Source of the DNA: an uncultured cyanobacterium
Lineage (GTDB): Bacteria > Cyanobacteriota > Cyanobacteriia > PCC-9006 > JAAUQQ01
Reading direction: 5' to 3'
DNA: 64,000 nucleotides
Assembly: GCA_963718615.1 (NCBI GenBank)
Contig: OY970368.1
Span: forward strand, 1,216,001 to 1,280,000
Shown here: positions 10,914-21,883 of the stretch, in pieces
Layout: the number at the start of each line of letters is the position of its first letter
How positions within the stretch are numbered: the stretch's first letter is position 1
The notes under the pieces: model-generated
Told to the model about the DNA's origin: nothing
The model's database searches: none
The model's input: the letters and a program-made list of their open reading frames with translations, nothing else
Translations under genes and position numbers: made by a program

Positions 10914-12293
<1,380 letters not shown>

Positions 12294-17739: not shown

Positions 17740-18969
17740 TTGAACATTACGTTGGTTGTCAGTGATTTATCCGCCAGTGGCGCTGGACGGTGGGGAGATG
17801 CCGTTCGCCCGTTTTTGCTGACCAAAGCCCTGCAATCCCTCGGTCATCAGGTCAAAATCCTGGGCTTTAATGCAGATCGCGACACCGATCGCGAAACGGC
17901 GATCGCCTCCTCTGAGAAGTTGCCCATCCAACAGATTCAGGGGGGAATCTATCCTCGGTTTTTCCGCTCGGCGGCGGCATTGTTACGGGCACTGCGGGCG
18001 GATCGCCAGTGTGATTTGGTCTATGCCTACAAGCTCAAGCCTAGCAGCTTTGGCTTGGCGTTGCTAGATCGCCTGCGATCGCGCCGACCCGTATTTTTGG
18101 ATATCGATGACTGGGAGTTGAGCTGGCATGGGGGCGATGCGTTCTCCTATCAGCCCACTCCCCGTCAACTGTTCCGGGATTTGTTTCGCTCAGAAAGTGC
18201 CCTGCGCAATCCCGATCACCCCTTCTATCTGCAATCCCTGGAGCGGTTAGTGGCTAAAGCGGATCAGGTCACGACCCACAATCAGTTTTTGCAAAATCGG
18301 TTTGGCGGAGCCTATATTCCTAATGGCAAAGATGTTTGTCTGTTCAATCCAGAACACTATGACCCGGTGGTGAGTCGCGATCGCTTCCAACTCACGCCCT
18401 ACCGCACCCTCATGTTTCCCGGTGCGCCCCGTCCCTACAAGGGTTTGGAAGATATTCTAACCGCCTTGGATTTGTTGGACCAACCGGATTTACGTCTGGT
18501 GATCGTCGGTGGCAGTCCCTACGATGAGTACGACCAGCAACTCATGGCCCACTGGGGTCGTTGGATCATCAAAGTTCCCCGCACGCCCTATGGCCAAATG
18601 CCCGAGGTAATCAGTGCGGCTCACGCCATCGTGGTGCCTCAGCAGGACACTCCAGCCACCCAGGCTCAGTTTCCGCTCAAGCTCACCGATGGTATGGCCA
18701 TGGCGAAGCCCATTTTAGCGACTAGAGTGGGGGATATTCCCCGTATTTTGGGTGATGCAGGCTATTTGGTTGACGCCAATGATCCGGCGCAACTGGCCCA
18801 GGGAATTCAGAAACTCTTTGGGGAATTTGAGGTTGCCCAGGAAAAAGGACGACAGGCTCGCGATCGCTGCGTCCAGTACTACAGCATCGAAGCCATGGCC
18901 AAAACTCTCGCAACTCTGTTGCCCCAAGCGCCCCAAGCGCCCCAATCCACCCAACCCACCCAACCCTAA
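17740..18969 (+). CDS. Glycosyltransferase family 4 (GT-B)
   Basis: G.PRPYKGLE and FPLKL.DGMAMAKPILAT.VGDIP motifs. Confidence 0.9.
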   Translation: MNITLVVSDLSASGAGRWGDAVRPFLLTKALQSLGHQVKILGFNADRDTDRETAIASSEKLPIQQIQGGIYPRFFRSAAALLRALRADRQCDLVYAYKLKPSSFGLALLDRLRSRRPVFLDIDDWELSWHGGDAFSYQPTPRQLFRDLFRSESALRNPDHPFYLQSLERLVAKADQVTTHNQFLQNRFGGAYIPNGKDVCLFNPEHYDPVVSRDRFQLTPYRTLMFPGAPRPYKGLEDILTALDLLDQPDLRLVIVGGSPYDEYDQQLMAHWGRWIIKVPRTPYGQMPEVISAAHAIVVPQQDTPATQAQFPLKLTDGMAMAKPILATRVGDIPRILGDAGYLVDANDPAQLAQGIQKLFGEFEVAQEKGRQARDRCVQYYSIEAMAKTLATLLPQAPQAPQSTQPTQP

Positions 18970-19041
18970 TCGCCAGCGTAGGGACAGGGCAATGCCCTGT
19001 CCCTACATCCGATCCTGCCCTTGATTCCCTTCTTTTTTGCC

Positions 19042-21114
19042 ATGTCTTCCACCCAGAAATTCCTGTTTCAGGTTGCCAAGAAGTATCCGTTTAAGATCTT
19101 TTGGAGTATTCTGTTTGGTTTTTCAGGGGCCATTTTTAACGGGATTGGAACGACATTAATTGTCCCGGTTTTGCTGGCTTTAATTGGACAGGAAGCCTCG
19201 CTTGATGGTGGCCCACCGCTTTTGCAAAAACTCTTGTCACCCTTTGGCGAGATGGATGGAAGTCAGCGCTTGCTGGCAATGACCGCTGTGATTATTGTGC
19301 TGATCTTTCTCAAGAGTTTGACGAACTATCTCAGCACGCTGATTTCAACCACCTTGGGGCGGCGAATTACCTCGGACTTCCAAGAGCAAGGGCTGAAGCT
19401 GATTTTGGATGTGGATATCGATTATCTGACCAAGATGCGCGTTGGGGATTTGATGAACCGTCTGGGCGGCGAAATGAACCGGGCAACCCTTGCCATTACC
19501 GGGGCGGTTCAACTCTTTACGATTATTTCGACGATCTTTGTATTTCTGGTTATTTTAATCGGAATTTCTTGGAAAATCAGCATTGCAACAACATTGCTTT
19601 TTCCTCTTTCAGCGCTGCTGAACCGTGGCCTCATTGTCAATTCTAAGCGATTTAGCAAAGTGCTAACGACCGTTAACAATCAGTATTCGAGTGGATTGGT
19701 GGAACTGATTGGGGGAATGCGACTGGTGCGTTCAACCGGTAATGAAGGTCGAGAATTCAAGCGGTTTACGGACCTGATTGAAAACCGGGAGAAAATCGAT
19801 TTCTTTGCCAAAGCCAATACCGGTTTGATTGGTCCTCTCGCCGAAGTCGTTAATATTGTTTCGCTATTTGCCATTGTCTTTATTAGCCGTGCGATTTTTG
19901 CCAATCAGCTCGATGTTTTGGCAACGATTCTTCCCCTTTACATGATTCTGATCTTCCGGATGCTGCCCTACATCGGTCAGCTCAATTCGGCACGGGATAC
20001 GTTGGCGTTGGCATCTTCTCCCGTTGAAGTGGTTTATGACATGCTGCGGCGGGATAACAAATCGTTTATGCCTAAGGGCGATCGCCTCTATGCCGGTATC
20101 AAAAAGGAAATCCATTTTAAGAACCTTCAATTTGCCTATCCCAGCAGCCAAAATCTCATCCTCAAAGGCATTGATCTAACCCTGCCGAAAGGCACAACCC
20201 TGGCCTTGGTCGGCTCCTCTGGCGCGGGCAAATCGACCCTGGCGGACCTGCTGCCCCGATTCTATGATCCCAACGGCGGTCAGATTTTGCTCGATGGCAT
20301 AGATTTGCGTGAGTACGATATCCAGTCTGTCCGCCGCGCCATGGGGATTGTGAGCCAGGAAACCTTCCTGTTCAACAACACGATTCGCTACAACATTACC
20401 TACGGACGCCCCGAGGCCACTGAAGCTGAAATCCGCTCAGCACTGCAACGGGCTAATGCAGAGGAATTTATCTCAAAAATGCCGGAGGGACTGGAAACCA
20501 AGATTGGCGATCGCGGCGTCATGCTCTCTGGGGGACAACGGCAGCGGTTGGCGATCGCCCGCGCCCTTCTCCAAGACCCAGATATTCTCATCCTCGATGA
20601 AGCCACCAGCGCCCTGGATACGGTGTCTGAACGGCTGGTCCAAGAGGCTCTGGATGAACTGAGCCGCGAACGCACGACGTTAGTCATCGCCCACCGGCTC
20701 TCGACAATCCGCAATGCCGATCAAATCGCAGTCCTCGACCAAGGCCATGTGGTAGAACTCGGAACCCACGACGAGCTCCTGCACCAGGATGGGCTCTACA
20801 GCCAGCTTTGCGCGCTCCAGTTTGCGGAACGTCATGGCGAGGGCTCTCAGAACCAAAGCCCATTATCGGAGACAATAAGCCAGAAAACCACAGTCAGTCA
20901 GCTCTCCTACGAAGCCCGCAGTCGATTGAACTTTATGATTGGTTCCCTGGGTCTATTGGCAGAGGATTTGGTTGAGGATCCGGAGGAGCGGAGTGAGTTA
21001 TCGCGGGAGGCCTATGAGGCGGCGATCGCGGTTCTTAATCAATTGGAATCCTTAGAAAATCAGCGACCACTGACTACATTGATTCCAGGGGCAGAGCAAT
21101 CAATCCAACCGTGA
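19042..21114 (+). CDS. HepA-like ABC exporter (fused TMD-NBD) with a C-terminal extension
   Basis: N-terminal TM helices, GSSGAGKST, LSGGQRQR and DEATSALD, followed by an approximately 90-aa extra tail. Confidence 0.92.
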   Translation: MSSTQKFLFQVAKKYPFKIFWSILFGFSGAIFNGIGTTLIVPVLLALIGQEASLDGGPPLLQKLLSPFGEMDGSQRLLAMTAVIIVLIFLKSLTNYLSTLISTTLGRRITSDFQEQGLKLILDVDIDYLTKMRVGDLMNRLGGEMNRATLAITGAVQLFTIISTIFVFLVILIGISWKISIATTLLFPLSALLNRGLIVNSKRFSKVLTTVNNQYSSGLVELIGGMRLVRSTGNEGREFKRFTDLIENREKIDFFAKANTGLIGPLAEVVNIVSLFAIVFISRAIFANQLDVLATILPLYMILIFRMLPYIGQLNSARDTLALASSPVEVVYDMLRRDNKSFMPKGDRLYAGIKKEIHFKNLQFAYPSSQNLILKGIDLTLPKGTTLALVGSSGAGKSTLADLLPRFYDPNGGQILLDGIDLREYDIQSVRRAMGIVSQETFLFNNTIRYNITYGRPEATEAEIRSALQRANAEEFISKMPEGLETKIGDRGVMLSGGQRQRLAIARALLQDPDILILDEATSALDTVSERLVQEALDELSRERTTLVIAHRLSTIRNADQIAVLDQGHVVELGTHDELLHQDGLYSQLCALQFAERHGEGSQNQSPLSETISQKTTVSQLSYEARSRLNFMIGSLGLLAEDLVEDPEERSELSREAYEAAIAVLNQLESLENQRPLTTLIPGAEQSIQP

Positions 21115-21391
21115 TTGGGATGGGCTTGCAGGGTAGAACCGGCTTTGGCGGGCAAATCGGTTTAAATCCAGCGATGACCGGCGGACAAAGCGGCTCAACT
21201 GGGCAAATCGGTTCAATGATCCGGATGGGGAGTCCGGGAGACTTAATCGCAGCGATACCACCGGCTACATTGCGAGCGGCGATCGCCCGCTCCTTTGCAG
21301 CTTTAAGAACGTCTCCCCCATGAAAATCCACCGATTCCACAACATTGAGGTCGTTCGCGTGATGCAAATCCGTAATAGAGATCTTTGACAT
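21074..21391 (-). CDS. Putative RiPP/bacteriocin-like precursor (double-Gly leader plus Pro/Cys-rich core)
   Basis: MSKISITDL... leader ending NVAGG, a core with P(I/L)CP repeats, a GGAG RBS, and a position 30 nt downstream of a co-oriented Cys-rich gene. Confidence 0.6.
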   Translation of the reverse strand: MSKISITDLHHANDLNVVESVDFHGGDVLKAAKERAIAARNVAGGIAAIKSPGLPIRIIEPICPVEPLCPPVIAGFKPICPPKPVLPCKPIPITVGLIALPLESM

Positions 21392-21421
21392 GGGGCTTCT
21401 CCGAGGATAGAGGGTTGGACT

Positions 21422-21883
21422 TTAGGTTGAATAAACACTCGGATCTGCCGCGTTACGGAGCTGATCCGAAACATAAAAGTTGTTCGTCACCACTTGGGGA
21501 CATCGCAAGCAGGCGTTCTGGCCTTCCTGTTGCCACCAGCGGCAACTGGCCCGAATCTGACAGGGGGGTAGCGTTTCCGTAACGGTCTCAAAACCCTTGA
21601 CAATTCGCTCCGCTAGGCGACACTGAGAACCGTCGTAATGGGCGCAGCCTTTTTCTTCGCAGGTGCTGGCAAACCGAAAAACCTCTGTTGGGGTAACGGG
21701 CTCTGTCGCTGCGAGCAACTCCTCCGTTACGGGTTGCGGGGTTGCCAAATGGACCAAGCGAGGGGTTTCGACTGTTCCGACGATGATGCCAAAGGCGATC
21801 GCCCCTTCCCGATCCGGTTGGGCACTCGGACACAGCGTTTGCGGCTTGGCGGGTGCAGGCTGGGAAGCAGAATCTGAGGCCAT
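21422..21883 (-). CDS. Conserved Cys-rich hypothetical protein (8 Cys, probably metal- or Fe-S-binding)
   Basis: LCPSA, C-x4-C-x7-C, LPPC-x5-CRWW.QEG..AC-x2-CPQVVT. Confidence 0.75.
   Translation of the reverse strand: MASDSASQPAPAKPQTLCPSAQPDREGAIAFGIIVGTVETPRLVHLATPQPVTEELLAATEPVTPTEVFRFASTCEEKGCAHYDGSQCRLAERIVKGFETVTETLPPCQIRASCRWWQQEGQNACLRCPQVVTNNFYVSDQLRNAADPSVYST

Follow-up and report, generated by a model that had tools for sequence, protein, structure and literature searches.

A small peptide gene and an eight-cysteine partner gene form a pair that cyanobacteria appear to have linked to peptide-export and peptide-modification clusters

Two small neighbouring genes, here called S (small partner protein) and C, appear to constitute a previously undescribed pair that cyanobacteria have linked to clusters of peptide-export and peptide-modification genes. 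No description of the pair was found in the literature searched, with most subscription papers outside reach. S lies on the minus strand at 21074..21391 of the window (the whole 64,000-nt stretch of DNA that was analysed) and encodes 105 amino acids from an ATG start to a stop codon at 21074-21076. C, at 21422..21883 on the same strand, encodes a 153-aa protein with eight cysteines and ends 30 nt upstream of S. A GGAG ribosome-binding motif, read from the DNA, stands 7 nt before the ATG of S (21399..21402, minus strand), and because S has this motif of its own and shares the strand with C at a distance of 30 nt, the two genes are probably co-transcribed.

S is supported as a real gene by its homologs

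The first-pass annotation had put forward a 105-aa open reading frame (ORF) with a ribosome-binding site at this locus, and both the ORF and its quoted sequence were confirmed as identical. The length of the ORF alone does not go beyond chance, since spurious ORFs of some 100 aa that lie across genuine genes are numerous in the ORF list of the window; it is the existence of homologs that, at the level of sequence, identifies S as a real gene. A search of 5.8 billion proteins returned four close homologs of S. Furthermore, a profile made without the S ORF retrieved S, at E 0.001, as its sole match among the 60,808 ORFs of the present genome, and this match lies 30 nt from the only copy of the C gene in that genome. 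A search of the genome for paralogous leaders, as had been suggested with the first-pass annotation, found neither a paralog of S nor any other peptide sharing its N-terminus.

Pfam, NCBIfam, PADLOC and PHROGs gave no match for S or C, and the matches of the C and S profiles to PDB sequences were noise (best E values, 0.26 for C and 0.65 for S). The scan for Rfam families and tRNA gave no match at all, and a promoter and terminator scan gave nothing above shuffled sequences. A close-homolog scan of 185,579 species genomes returned one locus, a glycosyltransferase, which we regard as spurious, as we do the top HMMER match of the family search (P0127), a repetitive adhesin. The convergent gene on the plus strand (19021..21114) encodes an ABC exporter of the HepA/MsbA type, in which Pfam and NCBIfam scans found no C39 domain. 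At its 3' end this gene runs 41 nt into the end of S; it is probably unrelated to S and of contextual value only.

S accompanies C across genomes

That S is a dedicated partner of C is strongly supported. C occurs in 13 of the 401 cyanobacterial genomes searched, the present one included, and an S-like ORF adjoins it in 10 of the 12 others. The remaining two are G170, in which S and C are fused, and G288, in which C is a pseudogene and no S is recorded. In the reciprocal direction, a search with an S profile found 10 matches in 8 of 400 other genomes, all 10 at 50-400 nt from a C gene; the S ORF of the present genome gave no match at 1e-4 in this search. The first family profile was dominated by long-leader members, detecting S in 40 of 80 metagenome loci and the present S ORF at E 0.87, and a broader seed was therefore needed. 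With the resulting iterated profile, S was found within 700 nt of C and on the same strand in 71 of the 80 metagenome loci, which had been selected by C alone. The same profile matched four of the 2,568 other small ORFs of these loci, all four apparently being further true members.

In the metagenome loci the median gap between the genes was 34 nt, with S upstream of C in 66 copies and downstream in 15. Natural S-C fusions exist in two kinds, and in cyanobacteria one C is accompanied by several hypervariable S paralogs. The S family comprises at least 200 clusters at 50% identity, and some of its non-cyanobacterial proteins have Lys-rich N-terminal tails or extra domains.

S combines a conserved leader-like part and strand with a variable insert

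The leader-like part of S spans residues 1-45 (21257..21391, minus strand) and ends Ala-Gly-Gly, with Gly44-Gly45 encoded at 21257-21262. In a five-sequence alignment of S and its four homologs, 32 of the 45 leader positions were invariant compared to 5 of the 60 core positions. A conserved leader, a variable core and neighbouring maturation genes had been named beforehand as what homologs of a precursor should display; besides the conserved leader and variable core, family members in cyanobacteria share clusters with C39-ABC, HlyD and rotamase genes and with genes for peptide-modifying enzymes. Other cyanobacterial Gly-Gly peptides begin with Met-Ala-x-Ile-x-Ile-x-x-Leu, and the N-terminus of S is similar.

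The consensus of double-glycine leaders has hydrophobic residues at -4, -7 and -12 and an acidic residue at -8. S carries Val at -4 and Ala at -7 but departs from the usual pattern at the other two positions, with Ala instead of an acidic residue at -8 and Glu instead of a hydrophobic one at -12. Gly-Gly was present in 150 of the 151 S family members examined. Among these 150, in which Gly-2 and Gly-1 are fixed by how the sequences were cut, Leu-12 was found in 102, Ser-11 in 110, Glu-8 in 110, Ala-7 in 96 and Ile or Val at -4 in 139, and most cyanobacterial members have a textbook double-glycine export leader. Other short-leader members have Ile or Val at -4, as S has Val, and the S of this genome is a short-leader variant. 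Relatives of S outside the cyanobacteria have no Gly-Gly at all and no constant neighbour except C, which suggests that the ancestral role requires neither cleavage nor export. The original reading of S as a RiPP precursor with a Gly-Gly leader thus stands in part: the ORF is real, its leader is conserved, its core is variable and its family keeps the Gly-Gly, whereas the -8 and -12 consensus residues are missing from S itself and the Gly-Gly from its non-cyanobacterial relatives.

S-like ORFs share just two elements with S. The first is an amphipathic helix, residues 27-43 (21263..21313, minus strand), in which Arg35-Ala36 is invariant across phyla in the cross-phylum alignment A6. The second is a C-terminal hydrophobic strand, residues 90-100 (21092..21124, minus strand), reading Pro-Ile-Pro-Ile-Thr-Val-Gly-Leu-Ile-Ala-Leu, the Gly of which (Gly96) is invariant across phyla. 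Between leader and strand lies a Pro/Ile/Cys-rich insert, residues 46-89 (21125..21256, minus strand), which holds a 17-codon internal duplication. The 60-residue core as a whole contains 15 Pro, 11 Ile and 4 Cys (residues 63, 69, 80 and 88), along with 1 Thr, 2 Ser and no Tyr.

The two imperfect repeats described earlier in this core are visible in the DNA as a 29-nt direct repeat (21137-21165 and 21188-21216) that is 76% identical and spaced by 51 nt, that is, 17 codons; Tandem Repeats Finder reported nothing here. As a hallmark of the family, however, the Pro/Cys-rich repeats did not hold up, since what the family keeps is instead the helix inside the 'leader' and the Gly-centred C-terminal strand. 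Cys is absent from 74 of 150 family cores, and PICPP-like units occur in 17 of 150. The family cores are hypervariable and 12-77 aa long; they are strongly hydrophobic and contain many beta-branched residues (15.7% Ile, 14.7% Pro). The Pro/Cys repeats are a lineage-specific insert and not a family-defining feature.

C is a highly conserved protein outside named families

Cys75, 80, 88, 108, 114, 125 and 128 and His82 of C are invariant in alignment A4, and Cys18 is invariant in alignment A2 and conserved to at least 90% in A4. Glu67, Arg70, Arg111 and Arg127 are likewise invariant, a Cys-Arg-Trp-Trp-Gln-Gln-Glu-Gly motif is conserved, and C is 50-65% identical across phyla, where it has hundreds of relatives (more than 800 clusters at 90% identity). 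Because of this cross-phylum identity and the invariant Cys, His, Glu67, Arg70, Arg111 and Arg127, C looks like a cofactor-binding or catalytic protein.

Pfam gave no match to C and 38 relatives at E up to 10, PqqD/RRE included, and C matched no NCBIfam family. No curated nif model of Pfam or NCBIfam matches C, arguing against NifQ or another named nitrogen-fixation protein, and its source label 'nitrogen fixation protein' looks unfounded. AlphaFold modelled C with a pLDDT of 84.8 from 150 sequences (54.7, which is poor, from 38 sequences). Searches with the C model yielded no Foldseek match at E ≤0.001 and, with VIA-align, none of 48,161 chains at Z ≥2. Being invisible to Pfam, NCBIfam and fold searches, S and C are probably missed by mining tools that rely on known domains.

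S and C are predicted to form a complex

The predicted S-C complex had a median score of 0.74 (runs of 0.67, 0.75 and 0.74) compared to 0.40 for the best of three controls, the score being the model's own confidence, obtained with alignments built in this analysis and at a low partner pLDDT (52-54). Among 157 solved complexes 116 reached the mark applied to such scores, as did 2 among 215 mismatched pairs. At least 74% of the predicted contacts agree between runs. The predicted interface of S consists of residues 17-44, 90 and 92-100, that is, of both conserved elements, which we accordingly label docking elements 1 (helix) and 2 (strand). The helix is predicted to dock on a beta-hairpin of C and on its Pro-Val-x-Pro-Thr-Glu-Val-Phe segment, and the strand presumably docks on the remaining interface near Cys18, Cys75, Cys80 and His82. 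For the Pro/Ile/Cys insert no confident contact with C was reported, which does not exclude contact, and this Pro/Cys-rich middle may therefore loop out of the complex. The first-pass annotation had cast the adjacent Cys-rich protein as a possible maturation helper. The partnership itself is the best-supported part of that reading, given the co-occurrence in metagenome loci and cyanobacterial genomes and the complex score relative to controls; as to maturation, C shows no likeness to a known enzyme in either sequence or fold.

Export and modification genes surround S in other cyanobacteria

As previously noted, the window holds no LanM, YcaO, radical SAM or C39 gene: Pfam scans of its 55 non-overlapping ORFs of at least 110 aa and of the S ORF found none. 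The proposal that C39 transporters might act in trans was borne out to the extent that the genome contains five C39 genes. The nearest lies about 229 kb from S/C, and near the five there is only one weak Gly-Gly candidate. The S/C pair of this genome stands alone among housekeeping genes.

Most cyanobacterial S members share their gene cluster with C39 transporters, radical SAM enzymes or kinase/lyase pairs. The cyanobacterial S/C clusters hold C39-ABC genes with a cNMP domain, HlyD, rotamase, radical SAM enzymes with Nif11 precursors, APH with HopA1, and MvdD; of the 11 loci from other cyanobacterial genomes, 5 have a pair of APH kinase and HopA1 lyase close to S/C, as do 3 metagenome loci. 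In the present genome there is no HopA1, and no LanC-like match was found, a weak null because the control of the same search matched nowhere either. Its single YcaO gene is 455 kb from S/C, and its PlpX-like and PlpY-like genes, accompanied by a Nif11 precursor of their own, are found at a distance of 2.5 Mb.

S as a candidate precursor-type peptide

We give roughly even chances to S being a precursor-type peptide that is recognised by its partner C and, in cyanobacteria, cut at Gly-Gly and exported by a C39 transporter. An old two-gene module would in cyanobacteria have been turned into a precursor-type peptide system, in which the S helix would be the leader element recognised by C. C would be small and metal-binding, working either as a peptide-modifying enzyme of a new kind or as a holdase that binds the leader, and would act on the Gly-centred core strand or hold it. 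After cleavage behind the Gly-Gly, a C39-peptidase ABC transporter would export a product with Ile46 at its N-terminus, containing the variable Pro/Ile/Cys stretch and the conserved strand. Since the genome has five copies, none of them nearby, the transporter would be encoded elsewhere. The S-C fusions count against a precursor, being equally compatible with a stable complex and with a substrate relation.

If the pair works in this way, it would bring to RiPP biology two families not recognised so far, one of precursors and one of partners or maturases, on the scale of the cluster counts given above and, for the partner family, in several phyla. As a test system the pair is also concrete and cheap: both genes are small, the interface is predicted and three residues of the peptide are invariant. 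More speculatively, and in our view rather doubtful, C might be the founder of a new class of small, metal-dependent enzymes that modify peptides, spread across phyla and of new fold, which recognise the Arg-Ala helix and act on backbone or side-chain positions near the invariant Gly of the hydrophobic strand. S/C would then be an ancient self-sufficient module that cyanobacteria coupled to double-glycine export, and variation between the two anchors would have given rise to hundreds of Pro/Ile-rich products.

Alternatively, S and C could be the subunits of a stable intracellular metalloprotein with a housekeeping, redox or regulatory role, S never being cleaved or exported here and its Gly-Gly and Pro/Cys stretch forming a tolerant linker between the anchors. 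We consider this possible, if on the unlikely side. It would account for a pair kept across phyla without Gly-Gly or export genes, for the fusions, for the housekeeping surroundings of the present pair and the missing acidic -8 and hydrophobic -12 residues of its S, for the Lys-rich tails or extra domains of some non-cyanobacterial S proteins and for a conservation of C unusual in a secondary-metabolism gene. It does not sit well with several hypervariable S copies per C, a near-perfect export leader and C39/HlyD clusters around S in cyanobacteria, nor with the restriction of C to so few of the 401 genomes, which is an accessory-gene pattern. Even as such a complex, C would merit characterisation as a conserved, widespread and unnamed protein.

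Less probable still is that S is secreted without modification, as a class II bacteriocin-like, signalling or matrix peptide, with C as a cytoplasmic holdase, chaperone or immunity protein that masks an aggregation-prone strand before export. The very hydrophobic, beta-branched-rich cores and the predicted covering of the strand by C are consistent with this. A precedent is reported from Synechococcus elongatus, where small Gly-Gly proteins make biofilm formation possible (PMC4997328, in the portion accessible), and look-alikes of S in the Atlas are small cyanobacterial proteins, with ComC in 19% of one cluster at a score of at most 0.84, a lead only. However, the invariant Cys/His set and extreme conservation of C exceed what a holdase usually needs, the pair is present where no export signal exists, and no immunity-type membrane protein is present.

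A thioether- or disulfide-constrained, lanthipeptide-type S matured in trans, which comes near the earlier idea of a Cys-constrained peptide, is very improbable: the four core Cys and the APH/HopA1 pairs near other S/C loci would suit it, but this genome lacks HopA1 and gave no LanC-like match (with the silent control noted above), the lone YcaO is distant, Thr and Ser are scarce in the core, and about half of the family cores have no Cys. Lanthipeptide classes I-V were rejected for S on the HopA1 and LanC searches and the composition of the core. Least credible of all is a chance open frame or operon tail without a protein product, for which the numerous spurious ORFs of similar length speak and against which stand homologs with an invariant leader, the conserved position beside C and the GGAG motif.

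Relation to known peptide systems

Groups I and II of cyanobacterial double-glycine peptides, in the accessible part of PMC3140520, are accompanied by a C39-ABC, HlyD and rotamase gene set. S resembles such PCAT double-glycine peptides in its Gly-Gly end and Val at -4, and its relatives share with them Leu-Ser-x-x-Glu-x-x-x-Ile/Val-x-Gly-Gly and adjoin long-type C39-ABC, HlyD and rotamase genes. The present S differs in having no transporter nearby and no consensus residues at -8 and -12, and the family as a whole differs by the second conserved element in the core and the obligatory eight-Cys partner, which was not found named in that part of the paper. S matched no Nif11 or NHLP leader in Pfam or NCBIfam at E up to 1, nor did any of 16 A3 members at E up to 10.

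Small accessory proteins that recognise RiPP leaders include PqqD-like RRE domains and PlpY, an activator of spliceases (PMC11414181 and PMC5995677, both accessible in part). Like these, C is small, encoded beside the putative precursor and predicted to bind a helical leader segment, and it occurs in the same cyanobacterial clusters as PlpX/PlpY. It differs in its 8 Cys and 1 His, in having no fold match and in occurring without a larger enzyme, and was rejected as an RRE/PqqD-like leader binder on the Pfam and structural searches above. Neither S nor C is PlpY, which is a 56-73 aa ORF directly downstream of a radical SAM gene and has its own, remote copy in this genome. S was also rejected as a spliceotide; with no Tyr in its core, it has no x-Tyr-Gly, and the PlpX/PlpY-like genes are far off with a precursor of their own.

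PQQ (PqqA) and mycofactocin (MftA) are made with radical SAM enzymes and an RRE protein. S/C shares with them a short peptide, a small strict motif, a dedicated conserved partner and an occurrence in several phyla, but C has no radical SAM motif. In borosins, precursor and enzyme are found both fused and split. S/C differs from these in having no methyltransferase fold and is like them in occurring either as two genes or as one fused gene, in which S is N-terminal to C.

A conserved leader and a variable core in S

The 105-aa minus-strand ORF at 21074..21391, here called S, exactly matches the sequence quoted in the first-pass annotation; it starts with ATG in the ORF list, and direct reading of the sequence places GGAG 7 nt before this codon. 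Residues 1-45, the leader-like part, end in Ala-Gly-Gly, and the remaining 60 residues contain 15 Pro, 11 Ile and 4 Cys by composition count. The two imperfect core repeats reported earlier are mirrored in the DNA by a direct repeat of 29 nt (21137-21165 and 21188-21216) whose copies are 76% identical and lie 17 codons apart. Because spurious ORFs of about 100 aa are abundant in the ORF list of the window, the length of S is no proof of a gene; judged by homology, S is a real gene. Four close homologs were found among 5.8 billion proteins (E 1e-15 to 5e-11), and in their alignment with S 32 of 45 leader positions are invariant vs 5 of 60 in the core, which bears out the proposed combination of conserved leader and variable core.

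Pfam scans of all 55 non-overlapping window ORFs of at least 110 aa revealed housekeeping content and, as the first-pass annotation had stated, no LanM, YcaO, radical SAM or C39 gene. A HepA/MsbA-type ABC exporter gene without a C39 domain (19021-21114, plus strand) is convergent with S and overlaps its end by 41 nt; this exporter extends about 90 residues past the family models at its C-terminus and its gene is preceded by a glycosyltransferase gene (17740-18969). The window also holds 90 copies of GCGATCGC, the HIP1 palindrome, which marks the DNA as cyanobacterial.

The close S subfamily is rare: it had no significant match in 60 related genomes, its profile matched in 2 of 401 cyanobacterial genomes, and a pattern scan in which each species was represented by a single genome returned nothing real. 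In its own genome S has no paralog, and a profile built without S, searched against 60,808 ORFs of at least 30 aa with E values up to 10, matched S alone (E 0.001, residues 26-101). Profiles dominated by the long-leader majority miss S (E 0.87 in one, no match at 1e-4 in the other), and S is thus a divergent family member. Its layout assigns it to a short-leader subtype, in which the helix runs directly into the Gly-Gly segment (Asn-Val-Ala-Gly-Gly in S); its N-terminus, Met-Ser-Lys-Ile-Ser-Ile-Thr-Asp-Leu, resembles those of other cyanobacterial Gly-Gly peptides. Genome G134 and loci L056, L060 and L105 show this layout too, as does a set of 63-81 aa peptides which, like S, are encoded downstream of the Cys-rich protein described below. 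These other short-leader members keep Ile/Val at position -4 and are mostly acidic at -8, a position occupied by Ala in S.

S is paired with an eight-cysteine protein

The gene of a 153-aa Cys-rich protein, here called C, lies at 21422..21883 on the minus strand and ends 30 nt upstream of S; it is the only C gene of its genome. An S-like small ORF adjoins C in 10 of 12 other C-bearing cyanobacterial genomes; the other two hold a fused form (G170) and a C pseudogene with no S recorded (G288). S and the S-like ORFs have two elements in common: an Ala-Val-x-Asn-Ala-Val-Ala-Arg-Arg type of helix and, towards the C-terminus, a strand on the pattern Pro-Pro-Ile-Thr-Val-Gly-Leu-Ile-Ala, the end of S itself reading Pro-Ile-Pro-Ile-Thr-Val-Gly-Leu-Ile-Ala-Leu-Pro.

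We searched 80 metagenome loci, selected by similarity to C alone, with an iterated profile seeded from 16 partner ORFs, accepting matches on the same strand within 700 nt of C. An S partner was found in 71 of the 80, whereas among 2,568 other small ORFs in these loci the profile matched 4, all of which look like true members excluded by the distance/overlap filter. Among the nine unmatched loci, L077 and L122 each hold one of these excluded members, L059 is an S-C fusion, L072 and L119 have less than 80 nt of upstream sequence, and L093, L096, L109 and L114 are without explanation. Partners lay upstream of C in 66 cases and downstream in 15, with a median gap of 34 nt. Reciprocally, when 400 other cyanobacterial genomes were searched with an S profile, 8 of them gave matches, 10 in total, each 50-400 nt from a C gene. 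Furthermore, S and C occur fused, either as proteins of 220-244 aa in which helix and strand precede the C part or as a 292-aa protein in G170 (L033:1021-1899); the fusions comprise P0027, P0031, P0039, P0064, P0099, P0107, L059:2707-3411 and the G170 protein. S is, on strong evidence, a dedicated partner of C, in agreement with the first-pass suggestion that the adjacent Cys-rich protein takes part.

C matches no Pfam or NCBIfam family. The window copy retrieved 494 homologs at E <=0.001 and a soil-metagenome copy 806 at E <=1e-10, including named Methylomonas and Pyrinomonadaceae proteins, with 50-65% identity across phyla. In an alignment of 150 sequences Cys75, 80, 88, 108, 114, 125 and 128, His82, Glu67, Arg70, Arg111 and Arg127 are invariant; Cys18 is invariant among 38 sequences and at least 90% conserved among the 150. 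Public sources label C a 'nitrogen fixation protein' and, in one case, a 'ribosomally synthesized peptide with nif11-like leader', names that no Pfam or NCBIfam model backs and that may have spread from adjoining Nif11-leader genes.

AlphaFold gave a confident model of C (150 sequences; pLDDT 84.8, pTM 0.78) that starts with a beta-hairpin region, after which short helices surround the cysteines. Foldseek returned no match at E <=0.001 (best 1.3), and VIA-align with model m779afa0df9e9 matched 0 of 48,161 chains at Z >=2, a missing match being no proof of a new fold. In VIA-align the best Z is usually 7-8 even for models that lack a clear match; the complete absence of matches here points either to a very unusual loop-rich metal fold or to a search oddity.

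Prediction of the S-C complex gave a median score of 0.74 (runs 0.67, 0.75 and 0.74), against 0.40 for the best of three controls. In calibration, 116 of 157 solved complexes attained this mark, as did 2 of 215 mismatched pairs; because custom alignments were used here, these rates apply only roughly. The partner had a pLDDT of 52 or more, and the runs shared at least 74% of their contacts. The predicted interface comprises S residues 17-44, 90 and 92-100 and C residues 18-50, 59-82, 102-107 and 131-146, including Cys18, Cys75, Cys80, His82 and the invariant Glu67. On the S side these are the two conserved elements, chosen before the run; for residues 46-89 no confident contact was reported, which makes their contacts uncertain rather than showing them free. 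Modelling thus strongly supports the helix and strand as predicted contact points with C.

Leaders and cores across the S family

When 16 partners from different phyla are aligned, no positions are invariant other than Arg35 and Ala36 of the helix and Gly96 of the strand. Soil-metagenome relatives lack Gly-Gly and have a short variable linker between helix and strand; some carry Lys-rich N-terminal tails, an Asn-Pro-Gln-Pro-Leu-Pro-Pro motif or extra domains. This short linear motif recurs in many partners of non-cyanobacterial look, at the C-terminus, the N-terminus or in the linker (L064:2717-2965, L092:2728-2961, L107:1640-1912, L086, L057, L058, L075, L097). In one lineage (L042:8959-9627, L135:1002-1643) the partner measures about 215 aa, with an N-terminal helix, a Gly-Ile-Ile-Tyr-Asn-Pro strand and an unrelated C-terminal part.

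Searching 1.84 billion representatives with a HMMER profile returned 207 proteins at E <=0.001; P0127, a repetitive adhesin, was discarded as spurious. Gly-Gly is present in 150 of the 151 members examined, namely the best 146 small matches, S and its four close homologs. With the two Gly fixed by how the sequences were cut, the preceding positions show Leu-12 in 102, Ser-11 in 110, Glu-8 in 110, Ala-7 in 96 and Ile/Val-4 in 139 of 150. C39-peptidase ABC transporters recognise this pattern. Core length (n=150) ranges from 12 to 77 aa, and Ile makes up 15.7% and Pro 14.7% of the residues; 126 cores have at least one hydrophobic-x-Gly-hydrophobic motif, 17 have PICPP-like units and 74 lack Cys. 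The Pro/Cys repeats of the original description do not define the family. Cores of P0139, P0201, P0225 and P0246 resemble S in layout, with Ala-Gly-Phe-Lys-Pro-x-Cys-Pro-Pro, more Pro-rich units and Pro-Pro-Ile-Ile-Val-Gly-Leu-Ile-Ala in that order. A second core type behind the same leader is short and bears Thr-Cys-Gly-Met-x-x-Cys (L045:10679-10900, L039:8930-9145 and ORFs downstream of C in L082 and L099); it often lies across C from S, giving the gene order S, C, S'.

Neighbourhoods and a possible maturation route

In other cyanobacteria, S/C lies near genes for HlyD, a rotamase and C39-ABC transporters of the long type that include a cNMP domain, near a PlpX-like radical SAM gene accompanied by Nif11 precursors in which Tyr-Gly motifs occur, and near APH-kinase/HopA1-lyase pairs and MvdD-type ATP-grasp ligases. 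The radical SAM gene and the APH-kinase/HopA1-lyase pair each occur at 5 of 11 genome loci, and none of these neighbours is obligatory. Outside cyanobacteria no constant neighbour of C other than S emerged from a scan covering 150 of 180 extracted ORFs.

We consider it about an even chance that S is a precursor-type peptide. C would recognise the precursor by its helix, which in cyanobacterial S proteins would serve as leader element; C itself would bind metal and either modify the strand centred on Gly or hold it, and a C39 transporter would cut after Gly-Gly and export the rest. For S itself the transporter would act in trans, yielding a product that begins at Ile46. In line with the first-pass idea of action in trans, five C39 transporters are encoded elsewhere in the genome, the nearest about 229 kb from S. 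That S and C instead form a plain stable complex is less likely; it would fit the non-cyanobacterial relatives without Gly-Gly or exporter, the S-C fusions, the incomplete export box of the S leader and the housekeeping surroundings of S. A precursor rather than a subunit is favoured by several hypervariable S copies beside one C, the near-perfect export leader of the majority of members, a cluster context of peptide export and modification, and the patchy, accessory-type distribution of C, found in 13 of 401 cyanobacterial genomes, its own included. That S is secreted unmodified, with C serving as its holdase, is improbable. A lanthipeptide-type product is very improbable: APH-kinase/HopA1-lyase pairs occur near S/C elsewhere, but the own genome has no HopA1, no LanC-like match in a search whose control was weak, and one distant YcaO. 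That S is a non-gene, as its length alone would allow, is hardly credible beside its homologs.

Relation to known systems

As a precursor system, S/C most resembles the pairing of a double-glycine-leader precursor with an accessory protein that binds the leader. Membership tests placed it outside the Nif11/NHLP precursors, spliceotides, lanthipeptides and RRE proteins, and only in part within the PCAT substrates. No description of an S-C pair was found in the literature, including the available portions of PMC3140520, PMC11414181, PMC5995677 and PMC11626197; subscription papers and supplements, especially the original spliceotide cluster maps, may name the gene. If C proves an enzyme, it would be the founder of a new class.

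C was rejected as PlpY: in these clusters PlpY is a separate ORF of 56-73 aa immediately downstream of the radical SAM gene (compare PMC5995677 and PMC11414181). The own genome holds a full spliceotide-type set 2.5 Mb away, with no S or C gene nearby (G000:C1:3771500-3773500; L055: 9507-9977, 10030-11301 and about 11385-11483). Its 156-aa precursor looks Nif11-like by eye in the N-terminal region and contains three or more Gln-Pro-Met-Tyr-Gly-Val motifs; the radical SAM enzyme shares 76% identity with PlpX-like genes in other cyanobacteria, and the PlpY-like ORF lies immediately 3' of the radical SAM gene.
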